The translations under genes and the position numbers were made by a program. Positions 19 to 22,191 of a stretch of 64,000 bases of DNA are shown here, piece after piece. Source of the stretch: a virus (Duplodnaviria > Caudoviricetes); IMG/VR virus record IMGVR_UViG_3300020577_009596, positions 1 through 64,000 of that record, one strand, 5' to 3'. Below the pieces are notes generated by a model. It worked only from the letters and a program-made list of their open reading frames with translations. It did not search any database and was not told where the DNA came from. Each line of letters opens with the position of its first letter. Positions within the stretch are counted from its first letter, which is position 1.

Positions 19-279
19 TCACAACTTCTCCAAGTCTGCGAGGGCGGCGAGTATGTCGCCGTGACACTGCTTAGGACTACACCAGCATCCGAGAGTCCGT
101 CCTCTCAGCTCTGACAGACTCTCTAGGAGGTCCGGCTGACTCGTAAGCCACGAGCGATACGCATCTAGACACGCCTCTCGGCTGTCGAAGTCCTCGAGCT
201 TGAACGGATTACCCCACTTCGACGGTCTTCCTATGTAGACGTCGTAGGGAGCCTTCTTACAGTGAACAACCGTCGTCAT
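19..279 (-). CDS. DUF4326-family protein
   Basis: VYIGRPSKWGNPF and LRGRTLGCWCSPKQCHGD motifs typical of DUF4326. Confidence 0.85.
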   Translation of the reverse strand: MTTVVHCKKAPYDVYIGRPSKWGNPFKLEDFDSREACLDAYRSWLTSQPDLLESLSELRGRTLGCWCSPKQCHGDILAALADLEKL

Positions 280-1082
280 GACAACTTGACTTGGTTGGAA
301 TCCAGAGCGACGAATGTAGGAGCTAAATCTTCGCCCATGAACTGGTCGATGAGAGCGAGTCCGTCATAGCCGCGACGCTTAAGACCTTCACGAACTGCCG
401 GGATGTATACGAGGTCTTGAATGTTCTCGCCCTCGAATGGCGAATGGCCGGCGATCTCAGGGCAGGAGAACTCGTAGTCGCCTTCGGGGTAGACCTTGAA
501 GTTGATACCTTGGACCCCAGCCTCCCTAGCAATGTCGACCAGCTCTGCGGCTCCCTTCGCGTCGTTGAGACCGAGGTCGAGCGGGTTCTTGATTGAGACG
601 AATCCGCTATACATCCTCGCACCGGGCTGGTCTTCGACGAAAGTATTTGCCGACGACTTCTTTGTCGTGAGGAAGATGGGCGGCTCGTGGTCGTCTTTGT
701 AAGCTCCCCGATATACCTTTGCAGGATTGCCTCGCTTGTCGACGACCTTGGTCCCGGCGAGCCACTCCTGAACCTTTGACTTCTGCTTCGGCTCCCTCAC
801 CCCACCCTCCGGCGGCAGCGGCTTGCCCCGGCTCTCGCCCGACTCGACCGCCCGCCGCTCCTCGGGGCTGGCGTCGACGAGCACCTCCGCCGGGATGAAC
901 TCGCCGCCCTTGTACGTCTTGCCCTTGATCGTCACCCCGCCCTTAGGGGCGTGAGCGTAGAGGGTCGGCGAGACGGGGCGGCCGTACTGGTCCTGGACCT
1001 CAAGGACGGACTGGATCGGGGCGTCCCCGCGGCGGCTGCCGGAGACGAGCGGGGTCGAGAAGATGTCGTCGAGTACGGGCAT
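276..1082 (-). CDS. Polyvalent-protein-type ADP-ribosyltransferase-like (ART-PolyVal) effector with N-terminal HAPKGG tag
   Basis: WLAGTKVVDKRGNPAKVYRG...IFLT...IKNPLD...GYDG pattern; N-terminal AHAPKGG..GGEFIP segment shared with the portal fusion. Confidence 0.6.
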   Translation of the reverse strand: MPVLDDIFSTPLVSGSRRGDAPIQSVLEVQDQYGRPVSPTLYAHAPKGGVTIKGKTYKGGEFIPAEVLVDASPEERRAVESGESRGKPLPPEGGVREPKQKSKVQEWLAGTKVVDKRGNPAKVYRGAYKDDHEPPIFLTTKKSSANTFVEDQPGARMYSGFVSIKNPLDLGLNDAKGAAELVDIAREAGVQGINFKVYPEGDYEFSCPEIAGHSPFEGENIQDLVYIPAVREGLKRRGYDGLALIDQFMGEDLAPTFVALDSNQVKLS

Positions 1083-1518: not shown

Positions 1519-1601
1519 GATAGTCGAGTTAGGCGGGTCTCGACGGGGTACCCCCTACCCCTAGCCGGGTGAGTCGGATTAGCCGAGTCTCTACGAGGTA
1601 T
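1519..1601 (+). repeat. Left 83-bp imperfect inverted repeat built of 9-bp TAGNCGRGW units (extra triplet at about 1451-1476)
   Basis: Reverse complement of 2713-2795 matches 21 of the first 22 and 33 of the last 40 nt. Confidence 0.85.
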
Positions 1602-1604
1602 CCC

Positions 1605-2723
1605 ATGCCCCCGATCCGTAAGAAGATCTCCCCCAGCGTCGTAGTCGAAGTCCACCGATTCCTCTCTCGGTACATCGCCCTGAGCGAGACCGAGATCCGT
1701 GTCGCCTCCACCTGGGCTGTCGCAGCTTGGTGCTCTGAAGCGTGGAGCCGGTTCCCCCACCTCGCCGTGACCTCCCCCGAGAAGCGGTGTGGGAAGACCC
1801 GATTCCTCCAGCTCCTCGAGAAGGTCTGTCCTAGGCCCTTCCATACCGCTAGTATCTCACCGGCGGCGATGTACCGGATGATCGAGCAGGAGCGACCGAC
1901 CCTCCTCCTCGACGAGGCCCAGTCGATCAGCCGCCGCGGGTCAGAGTCCTCAGAGGTTCTACGAGAGATCCTCAACGCAGGGATCGACGCCGACTCTGTC
2001 GTCATACGGGTAGGCGGCTCAAACATGGACGAGATCAGAAAGTTCTCCGTCTACAGCCCGAAGGCGATCGCTCTCATCGGGAGTCTCGACGGAGTGCTCG
2101 CCGACCGCTGCCTCCCGATTCACCTCACTCGAAAGACGAAGGACGACAAGGTCGAGTTCTACAACCACCGCGTCGTCATCGAGGAGTCGAAAGGTCTCAA
2201 GGAGAGGCTTGAGAAATGGTCGACCGACAATCTCAAGAAGGTTCAGGAGGAGTACGACCGGACTGAGCCCTTCGAGATCGATAACGACCGCATGGCGGAC
2301 CTCCTCCGCCCCCTCCAGGCGATCCTCGCCGTCACGGAGCCGACTTCGATCGACCTACTGAGAAACTACGCTCAAGTCGCTGAGGAGAAGAACCGCCGGT
2401 CCGAGATGCTGTCTCCAGGGACCTTGGTACTTATCGCCTGTAAGGAGGCGTTCGAGGAGCGGGAGAGGGTCGTCAAGAAGATGGGGAAGCTGGTCGGTAG
2501 CGTCGAGCCCAACTTCCTTCCGACCGACACCCTTATCGAGTACCTCTGTAAGCGGACAGAGGAGCCGTGGTCTCGATGGTCTAAGGGGAACAACATCACC
2601 CCAGAGGCTCTCGCCAACCTCCTTCGCCCCTACGAGGTGAGGTCTGAGAGGAACCGGGATCAGTCGTCTCGGGGTTACTACCGACACCGGTTCGAGACCG
2701 CGTGGAACCGCTATACCCCGTAG
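1605..2723 (+). CDS. DUF3631-family replication-type P-loop NTPase
   Basis: SPEKRCGKT Walker A, LLLDEA Walker B, C-terminal EEPW...LANLLRPYEVRS...RGY...AWNRY; start moved to MPPIRKK (GAGG RBS). Confidence 0.8.
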   Translation: MPPIRKKISPSVVVEVHRFLSRYIALSETEIRVASTWAVAAWCSEAWSRFPHLAVTSPEKRCGKTRFLQLLEKVCPRPFHTASISPAAMYRMIEQERPTLLLDEAQSISRRGSESSEVLREILNAGIDADSVVIRVGGSNMDEIRKFSVYSPKAIALIGSLDGVLADRCLPIHLTRKTKDDKVEFYNHRVVIEESKGLKERLEKWSTDNLKKVQEEYDRTEPFEIDNDRMADLLRPLQAILAVTEPTSIDLLRNYAQVAEEKNRRSEMLSPGTLVLIACKEAFEERERVVKKMGKLVGSVEPNFLPTDTLIEYLCKRTEEPWSRWSKGNNITPEALANLLRPYEVRSERNRDQSSRGYYRHRFETAWNRYTP

Positions 2724-2807: not shown

Positions 2808-5800
2808 CTACTCCGCCAGCCCTATCCTCTTGAAGTAAGCGTAGCACCGGGGGAACTGACTCCGGAACGTCTCCATCCCGCCCTCGGTCCCGTACGCCAA
2901 CCTGCAAGCCTCCGCGAACCCCTCGACCTCGTCGGTGCGGGCGTAGTTGCTCAGCTGCCCCCGACCCATCTCCGCCCGCCACGCCTGGACGAACTCCGGG
3001 TCGCCACTCAGCTGGAAGTGCTTGCGATCGTCCGACTGGTCGAGAGCGTGACCGACCTCGTGAGCCAGGACGCCCCTCTGGTCCACGCTCGGACCGCCCG
3101 GCCCGGTCACCAGCTCGCCCGTCGCCGGGTCGTAGAAGCCGTAGCAGGTAGTCCACCGGTCCCTCGGCGGCGGGCTCGCCTCCCCGGCGTACCAGGCCTC
3201 CGTCACGGCCTCGGCGGTTGGAGCCTCTGTCAGCTTGGTCACCCGGCCGCTCAGACGCTCGTAGGCGGTCCGGGGGAGCCGCGAGAGGACCGAGGCAGTG
3301 ACGGGCGAGATCGGGTTGGGCGGGGCGAGAGAGGGCTCCTCGGACGGCTCGCTCTGGGTTGCGGGCCTTGATCCGACCATCAGCGGCTCCAAAGCCGGTC
3401 CGAACTCTTTCTGACCGTCGACGTAGGCGAGGAACGCCTCAGACAGGAACTCACCGTAGCTGGTCTTGGCATATCGACCCAACTTGTCGGCTAGATCGGC
3501 GTACTCCTCGGGGACCGGTCCGGCCAGTTCCTTGTTCGTAAGACCGGCGCGGTGCTGTAGAACGTGACCGAACTCGTGAATGATCGTGCTCTCGATCGGG
3601 TCTATGCCGGTCTTCGAGTGCCAGCCGGTCCTGTCCTTGAGAGTCTCGAACTTCTCCTTGGGGAGACCGAAGTGAACTCCCTTGCCGTCAGTCCGGAGAG
3701 CGATCGTGTCACCTTTGTCGATCACTACGAACTTGGGGTCCTTGCCGAGAGTGATCTGGAAGACCTTCTCGCCCTTCGCTTTGAGGTCCTTGGCCTCCTC
3801 CGCCGACACTTGCCGCTTGATTCCGGTCGTCGTCGAGGCCGTGTTAGTCCCTCCGGACTGCCAGACGACCTTGATCGAAGCCGGGTCAATATTGAATCGA
3901 CGGCAGAGATCGTTCAAAGTTCGTTCAACGACCGGAGCGACGGTCTTGTGGACTCGATCGGGAATCTTGACTGAGGTCTTCTCAGAAGCAGGCTCCCCTT
4001 CGACCCTCGCCCTCTCCTCCGGCGTCGCCCGGTCCATCACGTCCGACGGGATGAACTGCCCGCCCGTGAACTGCTTGCCGGCGACGGAGACTCCCCCCTT
4101 CGGAGCGTGAGCCGCGGCGTACTGGGTCTGCGGGACCGTCCCCGGTCCGGTCAGCCGGAGATAGGACTTCGCCTTCTCCGAGTCCGAGTACTCCAGCTCG
4201 TCCACGACCACCCTCAGGTCGAGCGGGGCCAGCAGCTTCGTATACTTTCGTCCCTCGCCCGCCCGCACATACGCCAACGTCGCGTGCGGCTCGTACTCGG
4301 AGTGCGTCGCCGTGTTCGGCAGCCCGCCCAGGATCGAGTTCATCGCCCGGATCTGGGGGCTCGTGACGTCCACCTTCACGACGTCGTAGTCCTTGCCCGA
4401 GTCCTCCCCGTAGAAGCAGCTGACCCCGCCCAGCGTCAGCTCGAACGGACCCTTCCCCCTCAGGGCCTGCTGTACATCGCCCATCGTCACCCCGCCGTGA
4501 AACCCGTAGCGGACTGTGACGTGGGGCTTCTCCTCCCGGCCGTCGTCGGCGAGGTCGCAGTCCCGGACGAGGGCGGCCCGACTCAGCAGCTCGATCGCCG
4601 CCTGACCCTGCAGCGGGACCATGACGCAGCCCAGCTTCTCGCCGTACCGGGTCGGGTCCTGGCCCCGGCTCAGCCTCGTGAACCCGATCTCGGTCTTGTC
4701 GAACTCGGGCAGGTAGGTGTTCGACCCGCCGGGGAAGTACGGGGCGGTTGCGGCTGGAGCGGGGGCCGCGTCGTACTGCTGTGCGGAGTTCTGGGTCGAG
4801 ATCTTTGCGGGGAAGTTCTTCAACGGCTCGGTCAGGGTCGAGTCTGCTGGCGAGAACTCACCGACGTACAGAGCCTTCTCGAAAGCCTGCTGAGCCGGTC
4901 GTTGAGGGAGGTTCTTGTAATCGCCTATCCCGTACTTGAACGGCGTCGGGTCGATGATGTCGCCATCCTCGGTCTCGACCCAGGCGTGAGGAGTCGGGCT
5001 CGCTCTCTTGCTCTCGTCGAACCACTTGTCGCCCGCCGGCTTGCCGTACAAGTTACCTACGACGTACTTCACTGACTCGCCAGCGGCCTTTCTCGTGAGA
5101 TACTCCCTCCGAGCGTTCTCATAGCACTCGTTCGGCAGACCGTCCTTGACGACGGGCTCCGTCAGCCTCTCGACGTCGTTCTCACTCCACTCCTCGACGG
5201 GCTTGTTGCCGTCAGTAGATTTAATTCGACCAGTCTTCGGTCCCTGCGATAGAGGTGAGGAGCCTCCTCCCTGTCCACTTCTGGTGAACTGACCGCCGCC
5301 GGGTCCCGAGCCCTTGTGCTCGTGGCCGCTCGCGTCCGTGACGTAGGGGACCGGCTGGCGTCCAGACGAGTTCTGGGTCGGTTGGGACTGCGACGACGGT
5401 TGCTTGACGACCTGCAGGACGACGTGCAGGACGTCGCCTCGCTGCTCGCTCCTGACCTTCTTGAACGTCGTGTCGCGAGCCAGTATGACCTCGTTACCCC
5501 TCTCTCCGTACGAGGTCGCCATCGTCCCCTCAGGGGCGAGGATCTCGATGGACGCCCGCGGACCGCTCGTCTTCTTGAAGTACCTGTCGTTGTCCTTGGC
5601 CGACGGCGAGACCGACGTGAACGCCGGGTCCGTGAACTCAAACCCGTCGGGTGCGTTCCTCAGAGACTCGATGAACTTGCCGCCGTCTGCCCCGTCCACG
5701 CCCTTGGACACCAAGGCGCGATGGAACTTACAGTTCGACGGGACGGGCCGCATGCAGGCGTCGAGCGACTCAACGACCCTGGCGTAGTACGGGTCGACCT

Positions 5801-7898
5801 TGCCGGACCTCAGTCCGGCATTCACCTCGCGTCCGTCCCTGTTGTACTTGCCGAGGTCGCTCGCCAGCTCGGCCTTCCTGACCAGCTCTGGGGGAGGGGG
5901 CTGCCAGCCGGGGGTCCAGCTCGGGTTGTGCACCCTCGGGAACTCCTCGTCGGTCAGTCGCGGTCCCGCGATCGACCCCAAGATCTCGGACGAGGACAGC
6001 TCCCGGTAGTCGCCGTCGTCGGTCTCTCGGCCGCCCGACGCCTCGTCGCCGGACCGAGCCTCGCGAGGGGCCGTCGGCTTGGGTCCGACCAAGTCGCCCG
6101 TCGACGAGGAGCCACTTTCGGGCGACTTGGTCGGGACGACCCTGCCGCTCTTGAGCTTGAACCACTTCCCAGACGGCCCCTGCCAGACCTCACCCTCCCG
6201 TCGCTGGCCGTAGGCGACCGGCTGCCGCGAGTTGAACGATGGCCCGAACCCGCTCGGAGACTGCGGCGAGGGCTGACCGACGGGAGGCCCGAACCCTCCG
6301 TCCGGACCAACCCGCGTCGGCTGGGCCTGCTGAGGCGCGGGCTGACCGGGCTGGGGCGTCCCCGGAGGGCCTCCCGGCGTCGGGGGAGCCCCTGGACCGC
6401 CCATCCCCATCGGTCCGGCGTTCGGGTCGGGCGGCGGCTGGACGACGTCGTCGCCCTCCTCGGGTCGCGAGTAGCCTGCGGCCTCCCGCAGCTCGTCGAC
6501 CTTGATCGGCACCTTGAGCTCGACCATCGTCTTGCCGCTGGCGACCTTCTTCTCGGCCTCGAGGTCAGGCAGCACGCTCTTGAACCGCACCGGGAACCGA
6601 GCCCACTTGAAGTTGTACTGCTTCAGGGGCTTGATCAGGTCGCGAGTGAGCACCTCGTCCAGGCGGTTGGTGTCGTAGACGAGGATCTCGTCCTTCGTCG
6701 CCTTCGCGAAGTTGGCCCGGCCCGAGCCGCCCAGCCCCGAGTCGTTGTCCGCGCCGGCACTCATGCTCTGGCCGACGATCAGCCGCTCGATGTGGCGGTC
6801 GAAGTACTCGCTGATGAGGTCGTGCAGGGCCTTGAGCCCCGCGTCGTTCATGCTCAGCTGCTCGACCGCGTTCCAGTTGCCCGCCGGGTTCCGGGGCACG
6901 ACGAACGCGGCCTTGCCGATGATCTTGTTGGCGTTGGCCTCCTGCTGCCTCTTGGCCTGGTCGTTCCCCCACGGGAAGTTGAAGATCATCATGTCCATCT
7001 GGCCGACGGACTGCATGTACGCGAGCATCCACGTCAGGGCGTCGGTGCGGATCAGGTAGTGCCAGTAGACGAGCCCGCGGAGGCCGAGGCCCTGGACCGA
7101 CCCGGCCAGCTCGCCCTCGAAGTAGTCCGCCTTCTCACGGATGTGCTGGTGGATCGCGAACCGGTTCCGCCACGTCGGCCGCTGCAGGACGAGGGCCATG
7201 CCGCCGCGGTCGGTCGAGCGGATGTCGCCCCACTGGCCTTGGGTCGCCCCGTTGGACGAGTACCAGCCCGCGGTCATGGCGTCCATGAGGATCGCCGGGA
7301 CGCCGTCGAAGGTGAACTGGATCGAGTCGCCGTGGACCGGGTCCCACCGCCGCAGGCTCCACAGGTCGTTCACGTCCGGGTTCCGCCAGTAGTTCCACTG
7401 GGTCCCGGCCCGGCCGAACCACACGCCGTCGAGGAGTGCTCGCTTGTAGGCGTCGAAGTCGGGGATCGCCTCCACGACCTTCGTCAGGGCGTCCCGCACG
7501 GCCCGCTGGTTGGGGTCGCGGTCGTCGTCCACGTCCAGCTGCCACCGGCGGTTGATCGTCGGGAGGATCCGCTCCTCGAGGAGACCCCGGATGAACGCGT
7601 CGCGACGCATCGCGCGGGCCTTGACCCACGAGTCCCGCATCGCCTCGTCGAACCGGTAGCTGTACGTCCGCGTCGCCGCGTTCAGCACCATGCTGAACTC
7701 TCGGGCGGGCGGGACGAGGTAGCCGTCTGGTCCTGTAAGAGGACTCCCATCTGGGAGCCGAAAGTCCTCGACCTTGAGGTTCTGGTTCGGCGGGACGACC
7801 TTGAACGCGGGCAGGTCCGGCATCGCCCGACCCCCGACCTGGACGGAGGAGGACGAGGAGACGCCGGACGAGCCGGAGGGGATGAACGGGAGCGGCAT
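2808..7898 (-). CDS. Portal protein (DUF935/Mu gp29-like) fused to ART, Cys-protease-like, 2H phosphoesterase and two zincin domains
   Basis: N-terminal ~490 aa portal-like (GLGLRGLVYW...LIVGQSMS...LTRDLIKPL); ART FHRA..FTSVS..NEVIL; C-H-D (ECYENA/PHAWV/IIDPT); HVT and HAT 2H motifs; HEFGH and HEVGH. Confidence 0.75.
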   Translation of the reverse strand: MPLPFIPSGSSGVSSSSSVQVGGRAMPDLPAFKVVPPNQNLKVEDFRLPDGSPLTGPDGYLVPPAREFSMVLNAATRTYSYRFDEAMRDSWVKARAMRRDAFIRGLLEERILPTINRRWQLDVDDDRDPNQRAVRDALTKVVEAIPDFDAYKRALLDGVWFGRAGTQWNYWRNPDVNDLWSLRRWDPVHGDSIQFTFDGVPAILMDAMTAGWYSSNGATQGQWGDIRSTDRGGMALVLQRPTWRNRFAIHQHIREKADYFEGELAGSVQGLGLRGLVYWHYLIRTDALTWMLAYMQSVGQMDMMIFNFPWGNDQAKRQQEANANKIIGKAAFVVPRNPAGNWNAVEQLSMNDAGLKALHDLISEYFDRHIERLIVGQSMSAGADNDSGLGGSGRANFAKATKDEILVYDTNRLDEVLTRDLIKPLKQYNFKWARFPVRFKSVLPDLEAEKKVASGKTMVELKVPIKVDELREAAGYSRPEEGDDVVQPPPDPNAGPMGMGGPGAPPTPGGPPGTPQPGQPAPQQAQPTRVGPDGGFGPPVGQPSPQSPSGFGPSFNSRQPVAYGQRREGEVWQGPSGKWFKLKSGRVVPTKSPESGSSSTGDLVGPKPTAPREARSGDEASGGRETDDGDYRELSSSEILGSIAGPRLTDEEFPRVHNPSWTPGWQPPPPELVRKAELASDLGKYNRDGREVNAGLRSGKVDPYYARVVESLDACMRPVPSNCKFHRALVSKGVDGADGGKFIESLRNAPDGFEFTDPAFTSVSPSAKDNDRYFKKTSGPRASIEILAPEGTMATSYGERGNEVILARDTTFKKVRSEQRGDVLHVVLQVVKQPSSQSQPTQNSSGRQPVPYVTDASGHEHKGSGPGGGQFTRSGQGGGSSPLSQGPKTGRIKSTDGNKPVEEWSENDVERLTEPVVKDGLPNECYENARREYLTRKAAGESVKYVVGNLYGKPAGDKWFDESKRASPTPHAWVETEDGDIIDPTPFKYGIGDYKNLPQRPAQQAFEKALYVGEFSPADSTLTEPLKNFPAKISTQNSAQQYDAAPAPAATAPYFPGGSNTYLPEFDKTEIGFTRLSRGQDPTRYGEKLGCVMVPLQGQAAIELLSRAALVRDCDLADDGREEKPHVTVRYGFHGGVTMGDVQQALRGKGPFELTLGGVSCFYGEDSGKDYDVVKVDVTSPQIRAMNSILGGLPNTATHSEYEPHATLAYVRAGEGRKYTKLLAPLDLRVVVDELEYSDSEKAKSYLRLTGPGTVPQTQYAAAHAPKGGVSVAGKQFTGGQFIPSDVMDRATPEERARVEGEPASEKTSVKIPDRVHKTVAPVVERTLNDLCRRFNIDPASIKVVWQSGGTNTASTTTGIKRQVSAEEAKDLKAKGEKVFQITLGKDPKFVVIDKGDTIALRTDGKGVHFGLPKEKFETLKDRTGWHSKTGIDPIESTIIHEFGHVLQHRAGLTNKELAGPVPEEYADLADKLGRYAKTSYGEFLSEAFLAYVDGQKEFGPALEPLMVGSRPATQSEPSEEPSLAPPNPISPVTASVLSRLPRTAYERLSGRVTKLTEAPTAEAVTEAWYAGEASPPPRDRWTTCYGFYDPATGELVTGPGGPSVDQRGVLAHEVGHALDQSDDRKHFQLSGDPEFVQAWRAEMGRGQLSNYARTDEVEGFAEACRLAYGTEGGMETFRSQFPRCYAYFKRIGLAE

Positions 7899-8939: not shown

Positions 8940-8985
8940 AGCCTCGAGAGTCGTTGGTAGGCACGGACTTATCGTGAATCACTTC
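8936..8985 (-). pseudogene. Stranded original 3' end of gene 9602..10069 (EVIHDKSVP/YQRLSRL*, 1-nt deletion)
   Basis: Translates to a near-duplicate of the current C-terminus EVVLNKSVPYQRLSRL*. Confidence 0.85.
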
Positions 8986-9503
8986 AAATGCTTCCAGGTG
9001 GTGCGATTGAGTACAGCTGTAATAGCTCCGTACTTCACTCCAAACTTGTCAGCGAGATCGTATCGAGTCATGTCGCCTCGATAGTTTCGTATGAACTTGA
9101 CGTCCTCGTCAGTCAGTTTGGCGTTGCGGTGCCTCTCTCCTCTCGCCGACCTGTCTTTTGACTTCATGTCGTCGAAATTGTCTTGATGAGTTCCTAAGAA
9201 CAGATGGCCAGGGTTGACACATTCGCGGTTATCGCACTTGTGACAGACGACCAAGTTGTCTGGAAGATCGCCGCGATGATAACGGTACGACCATCTGTGA
9301 GCCTTCCAAGGTTTACCGGCGTCGCTTATGATTCCGTAGCCCCACTGCTTCACTCCAGTCCAGACCCAGCATCTCGTACCGAGAATCTGATGAATCGGTC
9401 CGTTCTTCTCGACGTGACTCCAAAACCGATGCTCGGCGGAGGTCCAGCGACTCTTAGTTACCTTGATGACTCCGCTCTTGACGAGCGTATACACGTCAGA
9501 CAT
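8979..9503 (-). CDS. HNH homing endonuclease (HNH_3 plus C-terminal HTH)
   Basis: RFWS..CWVWTG..YG..KAHR..VCHKCDNRECVNPGHLFLGT..DN. Confidence 0.9.
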   Translation of the reverse strand: MSDVYTLVKSGVIKVTKSRWTSAEHRFWSHVEKNGPIHQILGTRCWVWTGVKQWGYGIISDAGKPWKAHRWSYRYHRGDLPDNLVVCHKCDNRECVNPGHLFLGTHQDNFDDMKSKDRSARGERHRNAKLTDEDVKFIRNYRGDMTRYDLADKFGVKYGAITAVLNRTTWKHLK

Positions 9504-20811: not shown

Positions 20812-22191
20812 TCACCGACGGCAGGCTGCGAGCGACTCCCGCATCCTGCGGATCCCCGGACCGAACCGGCCGCCGAGGAAGTCGCCCTCCGGCACGGCGT
20901 TCATCGGTCCCTGGATCCGACCGTCGGGGTTCTTCGGGTAGCTGTACGGCATCTGGTTCGCCGCGGTCCGCTCCTGAAGGTGCTGCCGGAGCCACAGCTG
21001 GCGGAGCGTGTCGTTGAGCGATGAGCTGGGGTCGATCGGTCCGGGACGCTCGGCGAACGAGTCGTATGTGTCCAGCGGCTGGGGCTGACCGGCCAGGGGC
21101 GGGATCTCGCCGGTCGGCTGGCCCATGAACGACGGGCAGTAGGGGGACGGCGGGCGGCAGCTGGCGAGGGCCTCCCTCATGCCGGCACACGGGTCGGTCA
21201 TGACGTCGCGGGGCAGGGCCGGAGGGATCGTGTCGCCGGGATACTCGACCCTCGGGAGCGGAGAAGCCGCCTCGTACCGCGAGTTCTGGGTCGGCGACTG
21301 GAGACTCTTCGAGTGCCGGGCAGCCAGCATGTCAATCGCGTCCGCTCTCTTCTCGACTCTGGTAGCCACTCGGTTCCCCTCGGGGTCCAATACTACCCAG
21401 CCCTCCTTCTGAGTTATCTGGTTGGCTCCGTTGACGGTCTTGAATCCCGTGTATCTCTCCTTGACCAGTCTGCCGATCGGCTTCCCGTCGTGCGACACAT
21501 CGAATCCACCGTCCCCCGCGGGGGTCAGCTTGGAGGACGCGGCGATCGCCATCGGGGACTTCGGGTCCTTGAGCATCTTGAGTCGGTCCTGCTCCTTCAC
21601 AAGCGGGGCGATGATTTTCATCCTCGCCTTGACCACCTTTGCCGAGTTGCCCTTGCCGTCGTTGACGATCTGCATGATCCTTTGATTGATAGCCTCGATC
21701 TGCGAGTCCACAGAACCGGAGGAGTCTCCAGTATGCGGCGTGGAAGCGGACGACCCTTGACCCTTACCGTTGTCTGACGACCCGCCAGAGCCGCTTCCGC
21801 TCGTGAACTGACCACCGCCCGGTCCTGACTCCTTGTGCTCGTGGCCTGACGAGTCGGTCACGTACATCTGAGGACCCCCGCAAGCCGCGAGCGTCTCCCG
21901 CATTCCGGCACAGGGGTCCGGCGGGGCGGCGAAGTTGGCCTCGATCGCCCGGCCCTCCGGGTACGAGCCGACGCTGTATTGCGGGCTCTGAGGCGGGGTG
22001 CCGACGTTGCCGCCCTCGAACGGGTTCTCGCCGTAGGGGGCCGGGGGCTGCGGGGGGTGACGGTCGATCGGGTTGCACCGGTTGAGTGCCCGCGTCAGCC
22101 GCTTCATCTGGAAGGCGGAGGCGAGGTCCCCGGCGACGGCGGAGGCCTCGGACAGGTGCATCTTGGCTGCGTTCAGGTGGGCGTCGGACAC
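20812..22191 (-). CDS. Pro-rich repeat protein carrying a GHEHK-tag/TQNS cargo module
   Basis: Three MRE(T/A/S)LA(A/S)C repeats; YVTDSSGHEHKESGPGGGQFT and SPTQNSRY shared with the portal fusion. Confidence 0.7.
   Translation of the reverse strand: MSDAHLNAAKMHLSEASAVAGDLASAFQMKRLTRALNRCNPIDRHPPQPPAPYGENPFEGGNVGTPPQSPQYSVGSYPEGRAIEANFAAPPDPCAGMRETLAACGGPQMYVTDSSGHEHKESGPGGGQFTSGSGSGGSSDNGKGQGSSASTPHTGDSSGSVDSQIEAINQRIMQIVNDGKGNSAKVVKARMKIIAPLVKEQDRLKMLKDPKSPMAIAASSKLTPAGDGGFDVSHDGKPIGRLVKERYTGFKTVNGANQITQKEGWVVLDPEGNRVATRVEKRADAIDMLAARHSKSLQSPTQNSRYEAASPLPRVEYPGDTIPPALPRDVMTDPCAGMREALASCRPPSPYCPSFMGQPTGEIPPLAGQPQPLDTYDSFAERPGPIDPSSSLNDTLRQLWLRQHLQERTAANQMPYSYPKNPDGRIQGPMNAVPEGDFLGGRFGPGIRRMRESLAACRR

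Follow-up and report, generated by a model that had tools for sequence, protein, structure and literature searches.

A predicted phage portal protein with five enzyme-like modules, read as the anchor of a polyvalent protein

The open reading frame (ORF) at positions 2808-7898, minus strand, of a 64-kb window of phage DNA is, as judged from its sequence, a phage portal protein that serves to anchor a polyvalent (multi-effector) protein. The window, meaning the whole stretch analysed, is the first 64 kb of a linear 101.5-kb IMG/VR virus record (IMGVR_UViG_3300020577_009596) of an uncultured phage, which CheckV places at 82% completeness. The ORF is one stop-free frame of 1696 codons, and its 1696-residue translation (P0001) comprises a Mu-type portal domain, a Pro/Gly linker and a tail of ~1,200 residues with five enzyme-like modules: an ADP-ribosyltransferase (ART) fold, a Cys-His-Asp domain, a 2H phosphoesterase, zincin 1 and zincin 2. 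The GC content at third codon positions (GC3) is 0.72-0.99 in all blocks of 100 codons, so the ORF looks genuinely coding in this frame over its whole length. Polyvalent proteins are defined by 2-15 unrelated, mostly enzymatic domains in one polypeptide, encoded by a phage or conjugative element, and by a virion-associated context; P0001 combines a portal with five enzyme-like modules, and the context is provided both by the fusion to the portal and by relatives of the modules that lie in MuF proteins or adjoin portal genes. The features of the gene, all on the minus strand and given in window positions, are as follows.

2808-7898, minus: whole gene, predicted 1696-residue portal-anchored polyvalent protein, P0001 (single open frame, GC3, sole Portal_Mu match)
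6444-7898, minus: predicted Mu-type portal domain, residues 1-485 (Pfam Portal_Mu, phrog_113, identity to related fusions)
6219-6443, minus: Pro/Gly-rich low-complexity linker, residues 486-560 (translation; also in the consensus of related fusions)
5862-6218, minus: junction, type C peptide 'Y..RREGEVWQGPSGKWFKLKSGRVVP' followed by an acidic, probably disordered stretch, residues 561-679 (peptide also in P0004 and P0005)
5400-5861, minus: predicted ADP-ribosyltransferase fold of VIP2/C3/ExoT type, residues 680-833, with K732, S762-V-S764 and G801-N-E803 (PF03496 relatives, hidden Markov model, PDB profile)
5208-5399, minus: junction, 'PTQNS' and type A tag 'YVTDASGHEHKGSGPGGGQFT', residues 834-897 (regular-expression and hidden Markov model scans)
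4806-5207, minus: Cys-His-Asp domain, putatively papain/transglutaminase-like, residues 898-1031, with C925, H971 and D983 (conserved triad, AlphaFold2 model, VIA scan)
4674-4805, minus: junction 'STQNSAQQY...GQDPTRY', a degenerate tag, residues 1032-1075 (aligns to junctions of P0003 and P0004)
4131-4673, minus: predicted 2H phosphoesterase, residues 1076-1256, with H1126-V-T and H1205-A-T (Pfam 2_5_RNA_ligase2, invariant HxT motifs)
3999-4130, minus: junction, 'TQY' and type B tag 'AAHAPKGGVSVAGKQFTGGQFIPSDVM..ATPEER', residues 1257-1300 (scans, alignment)
3396-3998, minus: predicted LF-like zincin 1, residues 1301-1501, with H1441-E-F-G-H1445, Y1476, E1483 and E1487 (LF profile, AlphaFold2 model)
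2811-3308, minus: predicted LF-like zincin 2, residues 1531-1696, with H1613-E-V-G-H1617, Y1652, E1659 and E1663 (Pfam ATLF, LF in the PDB, conservation)

The portal domain matches Portal_Mu (PF06074, DUF935) with 117 bits (E 1.3e-33, cut-off 23.9) over residues 95-475 and model positions 5-335 of 336, and the portal family phrog_113 at E 5e-26. These matches bear out an earlier reading of the DNA made without database searches (hereafter the sequence-only reading), which had called the N-terminus portal-like and had placed a Pro/Gly linker behind it, now delimited to residues 486-560. A six-frame search of the 101.5-kb record returned a single Portal_Mu match (121 bits), and Phage_portal (PF04860), the one other Pfam portal family searched, had no match in the record; the ORF is the only predicted portal gene found in this 82%-complete sequence. 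Sequence searches of the PDB with the portal part as a single sequence, or with a profile of the full-length family, reached no solved portal, and the only match to the full-length profile was LF.

Portal fusions of this kind were found in eight independently assembled relatives, nine counting P0001, with cargo ranging from none to several modules. P0002-P0004, P0006 and P0007 were obtained from Logan/ENA through a length-matched search, and their portal parts are 64-81% identical to that of P0001 over the aligned region; their cargo consists of ParB_N, 2H and ART-PolyVal domains in varying order. L010-L012 come from IMG/VR. L012 is the minimal form, a portal and zincin 2 alone in 854 residues, L010 has a portal, zincin 2 and a GNAT-like tail, and L011 a portal and an unrelated tail. 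Relatives were also sought more widely: no prophage relative was present in contig scans of 185,579 species genomes, and the 'phages' collection of cultured phages had no close relative, with a portal match at 24% and no match to the peptides that separate the modules (described below).

The 2H module scores 36 bits against 2_5_RNA_ligase2 (cut-off 27), and both of its HxT motifs (HVT at residues 1126-1128, HAT at 1205-1207) are invariant among homologues. When a five-sequence 2H profile was searched against the PDB, the top three matches were Acb1 chains, with E values of 1.2e-5 (9q2g), 1.2e-4 (7t26) and up to 1.6e-4, and the plant CPDase ranked behind them. The module thus resembles Acb1, the T4 gp57B-type 2H phosphodiesterase directed against the cyclic-oligonucleotide-based antiphage signalling system (CBASS), in its 2H fold, its two HxT motifs and its best solved profile matches. 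It differs in that 2_5_RNA_ligase2 fits it better than the Pfam Acb1 model does, and in its setting: Acb1 is a free cytoplasmic protein, whereas the module here sits in a portal-anchored chain. On these sequence comparisons, 'Acb1-like' is a fair description of the module, with membership of the Acb1 family unproven.

Both zincins predicted by the sequence-only reading are LF-like: each has an HExxH motif followed downstream by a Tyr and by a Glu zinc ligand. The profile of zincin 1 reaches the catalytic core of anthrax LF at E 4e-9, and its HEFGH motif, Y1476 and E1483 align to residues that we take to be H686/E687/H690, Y728 and E735 in LF numbering. An AlphaFold2 (AF2) model of zincin 1 superposes on LF (1yqy) with a Z score of 9.0 and a root-mean-square deviation of 3.4 Å over 133 aligned residues, compared with Z scores of at most 7.5 for other zincins; the LF match came from VIA-align, and a Foldseek search of the PDB with the same model gave nothing at E <= 0.001. 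Zincin 1 is rare. A search for stand-alone homologues of 105-335 residues found none, and the one clear homologue is P0087 (L002:5290-10644), a protein of 1784 residues with no Pfam domain on record, whose gene lies directly after, and overlaps, a Phage_portal gene; P0087 is probably an unfused polyvalent protein. Zincin 2 scores 25 bits against Pfam ATLF, just below the cut-off of 27.4, and a single-sequence search of the PDB with it reaches anthrax LF (E 3.6e-4); all LF catalytic residues are invariant among its relatives. Compared with anthrax LF/PPEP (M34-type) enzymes and the metallopeptidases (MPTases) of polyvalent proteins, both zincins share the HExxH motif, the Tyr and the Glu ligand in 'E-x-F-x-x-E'. 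What they have in common with anthrax LF is a catalytic core of ~170-190 residues, and the substrate-recognition and PA-binding domains of LF are lacking.

The Cys-His-Asp module drew no family from a Pfam scan at E <= 10. It has ~20 stand-alone homologues of 130-170 residues, mostly viral, and C925, H971 and D983 are invariant across 19 sequences. In the AF2 model (mean confidence, pLDDT, 85) the Cys lies at the start of helix 31-44, and both the C-H-D order of the triad and the position of the Cys at a helix N-terminus are papain/transglutaminase-like features. The top 50 matches of a VIA structural scan with this model are mainly papain/transglutaminase-like and weak (Z 2.3-4.2); they include TglA, PeiW/PeiP, NTAQ1, arylamine N-acetyltransferases, LapG, transglutaminases, protein glutaminase, staphopain and cathepsin B. 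Foldseek gave nothing in the PDB at E <= 0.001 (best E >= 0.06), and the matches in BFVD were uncharacterised phage proteins at E 1e-4. The papain/transglutaminase-like fold class that had been proposed for this segment is therefore retained, as an assignment that the model makes reasonable but not strong, and peptidase, deamidase and acyl-transfer chemistries are all candidates. Papain-like enzymes are not among the four peptidase superfamilies listed for polyvalent proteins by Iyer et al. 2017 (PMC5512222). The module also occurs beside a 2H domain elsewhere: in P0012 (L015:388-9031), a MuF-anchored polyvalent protein whose gene lies downstream of one for a Phage_portal protein and one with a Zeta_toxin domain, the same 2H module is followed by the Cys-His-Asp module, and P0013 (465 residues, seen on 11 contigs) consists of just these two. 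The pair seem to travel together.

A direct Pfam scan of the ART segment at E <= 10 returned nothing, and a single-sequence search of the PDB with the ART part gave nothing useful. The relatives recovered by exhaustive phmmer searches are all PF03496 (ADPrib_exo_Tox) proteins; a hidden Markov model (HMM) built from six PF03496 homologues with the query left out scores 71.5 bits on residues 680-833, and a small ART profile finds VIP2 (E 2.6e-13), ExoT, CdtA, iota and C3 in the PDB. By homology the segment is thus predicted to be an ART by fold. It shares with the R-S-E ARTs of VIP2/C3/ExoT type (PF03496) the homology at the level of the fold, an STS-like S762-V-S764 motif and the catalytic Glu, E803. 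The ART fold class named by the sequence-only reading stands; the Arg that it took as catalytic, the R727 of an FHR motif, does not, as set out below. The positions given there for the motifs and domains proved right throughout: HEFGH at residues 1441-1445 (nucleotides 3564-3578), HEVGH at residues 1613-1617 (3048-3062), HVT at about nucleotide 4520, HAT at about 4284, C925/H971/D983 at 4950-5126 and the ART at 5400-5861.

The modules are set apart by segments rich in Gly, Ser, Pro and Gln, which contain conserved, Tyr-anchored peptides of three types. Type A has the general form 'Y..D..GHEHKG.GPGGGQF' and reads 'YVTDxxGHEHKGxGPGGGQFT' in P0001 (residues 852-872). Type B, generally 'Y.AHAPKGG....GK....GGQFIP..V...A.PEER', appears at residues 1260-1296 as 'Y.AAHAPKGGVxVxGKxFxGGQFIPxxVMxxATPEER', and is present also in P0003, P0004, P0006, P0008, P0011 and the window ORF 276-1082. 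Type C, generally 'Y..RREGEVWQGPSG.WF.LK.GRVVP', appears at residues 563-588 as 'Y..RREGEVWQGPSGKWFKLKSGRVVP', and a weak portal match to phrog_21 (residues 569-596) falls within this junction. A 'PTQNS' or 'TQY' comes after the end of several modules. Neither the junction peptides nor the Cys-His-Asp family matched any model in Pfam or PHROG. An HMM of type A detects 1-5 copies per protein in 47 of 88 collected proteins; the set was partly recruited via the tag, so these counts show how the tag is distributed and not how frequent it is. The type A peptide usually precedes a module by 10-50 residues, and in large proteins it is often found among the first 80 residues.

Several of the tag-bearing proteins contain MuF together with ART-PolyVal, GNAT or 2H domains, and the same modules and tags recur in polyvalent proteins that contain MuF and in others that adjoin portal genes, which agrees with the link to MuF and polyvalent proteins that had been drawn for this gene. 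Many uncultured phages share the tags, which occur in free-standing cargo proteins as well as in those anchored by a portal or by MuF. We tentatively suggest that the junction peptides might serve as a portable signal on the cargo of phage heads, one that marks each module for encapsidation and/or precise proteolytic release. If this were true, their role in phages would correspond to that of the cargo-loading peptides of encapsulins or the capsid-targeting sequence of T4, and modules could be swapped between anchors. Another idea was that the 'TQ|N/Y' junctions serve as cleavage sites of 3C-like (Gln-P1) type or as substrates for the Gln-directed enzymes to which the Cys domain bears a resemblance; this idea was unsupported and was dropped, and it is also countered by the absence of the Cys module from most relatives that keep the junction.

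Two free-standing ORFs of the window carry tags as well. ORF 276-1082 (minus strand, 268 residues) has a leader of ~41 residues, a type B tag 'YAHAPKGGVTIKGKTYKGGEFIPAEVL..ASPEER' and then a weak ART-PolyVal match (24 bits, below the cut-off of 31.2); lying downstream of the portal gene, it would be a second, separately encoded candidate for ART-like cargo. ORF 20812-22191 (minus strand, 459 residues) has a type A tag at residues 107-132 and 'SPTQNSRY' near residue 300. A Cys-containing motif occurs in it three times, as 'DPCAGMRETLAAC', as 'DPCAGMREALASC' and as the C-terminal 'RRMRESLAAC'. Another tag-bearing polyvalent protein, the metagenomic P0048 (1971 residues), has a NUDIX domain and a sub-threshold Intein_splicing match at residues 638-911. 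As for the immediate neighbours of the portal gene, a DUF3631 gene (window positions 1569-2723, plus strand, E 8.5e-22) lies directly downstream and breaks the minus-strand block, and an HNH endonuclease gene (HNH_3, E 3.5e-13; 8979-9503, minus strand) is among the small genes just upstream.

Base composition provides a view of how the train of modules may have been put together. GC3 is 0.88-0.99 in the portal, 0.90-0.94 in the 2H module and 0.89 in zincin 2. The corresponding values are 0.74-0.81 in the region spanning the end of the ART and the Cys domain (4806-5500; GC 0.60-0.63) and 0.72-0.76 in zincin 1 (3396-3998; GC 0.57-0.59), and these are the parts that close relatives do not have. 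The lower GC3 of the unshared modules fits later insertion, and suggests that the ART tail/Cys region and zincin 1 were acquired more recently than the portal, the 2H module and zincin 2. The evolutionary pattern is clear: a fixed anchor, variable cargo and a terminal zincin.

Several known systems bear comparison with this arrangement. T4 packages Alt, an ART, and small internal proteins in its head, frees them by head proteolysis and injects them with the DNA. The T4 cargo is encoded by separate genes and targeted to the scaffold core, whereas here the cargo is covalently joined to the portal. The portal gp29 (gpH) of phage Mu belongs to the same Portal_Mu family; the ring does not need its C-terminal part, which is removed in head assembly, and the last 124 residues are missing from the virion structure, a loss attributed to cleavage by protease I (PMC11915804). 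The removed tail of gp29 is short and non-enzymatic, and Mu has a separate MuF (gp30) and protease I, in contrast to the enzyme-like tail of ~1,200 residues in P0001. Iyer et al. 2017, 2022 described 2H, PBECR, InPase, NUDIX and ART domains fused to portal or MuF proteins, predicted that they are packaged and injected, unified the MPTase of polyvalent proteins with LF and proposed that it acts by autoprocessing (PMC5512222, PMC9503650). With such polyvalent proteins P0001 shares several unrelated enzyme domains per chain, a strand block in common with packaging genes, an LF-like zincin (MPTase) hub, ART and 2H modules, and an anchor, portal or MuF, of a kind described for them (PMC5512222, PMC9503650). 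Since portal and MuF effector fusions have already been described (PMC5512222, PMC9503650), the gene belongs to a known kind of system, the head-anchored polyvalent effector, for which portal anchors are explicit. The instance is unusually rich. The portal fusions quoted in those papers are the 'simplest architectures' with one effector, compared with five modules here on the only portal found, and P0001 differs from MuF-anchored polyvalent proteins in that no MuF was detected in the record. The Cys-His-Asp family and the junction peptides deserve follow-up most.

The C-termini of portal proteins, which form the crown, face the capsid interior, so each portal subunit would bring its train inside the procapsid. 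The explanation that we favour, and hold to be probable, is that the portal-anchored train is packaged, cut, ejected and active early in infection. Twelve copies would form the portal ring, each carrying its train of ~1,200 residues into the procapsid, and the trains would be cut in the flexible Gly/Ser/Pro-rich junctions that are marked by the Tyr-anchored peptides. The likeliest protease would be the LF-like zincin conserved at the C-terminus, which would cut its own chain or adjacent ones, with some head protease as the alternative. The freed modules of 15-25 kDa would then leave with the DNA through the portal and tail channel and act early: the 2H module would degrade either RNA ends or signals of the cyclic-oligonucleotide or 2'-5'/2',3'-cyclic phosphate kind, and the remaining modules would modify or cleave host proteins. 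By our estimate twelve trains, of ~1.6 MDa in all, would take up about the volume of 1 kb of packaged DNA, less than 1% of the capsid volume for a genome of ~120 kb, so capacity is no obstacle.

Several points weigh against this explanation or limit it. We infer from topology and by analogy that the train is encapsidated, cleaved and ejected, and likewise which protease cuts it and what every module acts on. Across the 101.5-kb record there was no match to Phage_Mu_F (MuF), Mu-like_Pro or Peptidase_S78, which is compatible with a portal that replaces MuF as the anchor and a zincin that does the processing; in a divergent record that is 82% complete this absence is weak evidence, and a head protease or MuF protein could sit in the missing ~18% or be too divergent to detect. 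Zincin 2 lies at or near the C-terminus in seven of the nine portal fusions (P0001 counted), P0007 and L011 lacking it, and an LF-like zincin is present in cis in 9 of the 47 tag-bearing proteins, so the zincin is not a universal processing enzyme. A complex prediction for zincin 2 and the type A junction scored 0.16, a value that speaks neither for nor against cleavage there.

Two of the effector assignments are also qualified. The Pfam Acb1 model (PF23474) gives the 2H module 17.5 bits, below its cut-off of 27, and its homologues 18-23 bits; of the proposal that the module is a 2H enzyme of Acb1 type, the 2H part holds and the family match falls short. In the ART, K732-G733 lies under the R-G of the family in both MAFFT and HMMER alignments ('LVSKG' against 'VVYRG'), and the register is firm because the flank 'GVDGADGGKFIESL' matches 'GMHGAEVRRIWEGL'. 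The Arg formerly taken as catalytic, R727, is five residues upstream, outside the catalytic column, and judging from the alignment it could stand in for the catalytic Arg solely via local rearrangement. In addition, the first position of the ExE/QxE motif is G801 and not Glu or Gln. With a Lys in the Arg column, an ExE motif without its first Glu and no direct Pfam match, the module differs from PF03496 ARTs to an extent that makes ART activity doubtful, and it may be an inactive effector.

We think it rather unlikely that the train is never injected and instead acts in the cell that makes the virions, as a late-expressed multi-enzyme on unassembled or new portal chains. In a variant of this account, the protein's own zincin clips the extension before or during procapsid assembly, the enzymes act late and the virion keeps a portal of ~500 residues. 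It would fit the loss of the Mu portal C-terminus during assembly (PMC11915804), the pre-packaging processing of P1 DdrB by its MPTase that is discussed in Iyer et al. 2017 (PMC5512222), a 2026 preprint in which T7-like portals act on host enzymes within the infected cell, and the long Pro/Gly linker right after the portal domain, which is an obvious cut site. On the other hand, an Acb1-like 2H hydrolase of defence signals would be most useful early, MuF, which is located inside the head, bears the same modules and tags, and the free-standing tagged cargo genes share a minus-strand block with packaging genes. It is more improbable that the C-terminal LF-like zincin is mainly the head-maturation protease of this clade, delivered by the portal and cutting scaffold or capsid proteins, with the variable modules as passengers. 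The smallest and best-conserved architecture is a portal with zincin 2, and neither a Mu-like_Pro nor an S78 prohead protease was found in the record. A missing Pfam match, however, says little in a highly divergent and incomplete genome, P0007 and L011 are without the zincin, and among polyvalent proteins at large, including those on plasmids, no hub domain is commoner than the LF-like MPTase. The known prohead proteases are, to our knowledge, serine enzymes, and a metalloprotease in that role would be unusual.

A train that is mostly a non-catalytic internal head protein, an inner-body-like filler or ejection aid derived from decayed enzyme domains, would account for the deviation of the ART at two catalytic positions and for the long low-complexity segments between domains; the invariance across homologues of the catalytic residues of the 2H module, the Cys domain and both zincins makes it decidedly improbable in our view. 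We give hardly any credence to an assembly or frameshift artefact that joins the portal gene to downstream genes, a possibility that the sequence-only reading had itself named: the frame is continuous with uniformly high GC3, and the same fusion topology is found in eight other independently assembled contigs, so the fusion is real. Production of a short portal by programmed frameshifting was also considered and dropped after a scan for X_XXY_YYZ sites found none in frame near the boundary of portal and linker; the sole in-frame slippery site, GGGGGGA, is at residue 1267, inside the type B tag.

The polyvalent proteins are a large and almost wholly computational prediction, very few of them having been shown to be packaged, processed or injected, and this gene is a compact test case for them. 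With the portal as anchor, the number of copies would be set at twelve and their place at one vertex. The family supplies natural cargo-swap variants, from portal and zincin up to portal and five modules, and the sharply conserved peptides of the junctions lend themselves to mutation or mapping. With the Cys-His-Asp module comes a protein family that is mostly viral and uncharacterised. Should the 2H module be an Acb1-like enzyme delivered by the virion, this would mean that phages can pre-load an anti-CBASS or anti-signal activity ahead of all phage gene expression.

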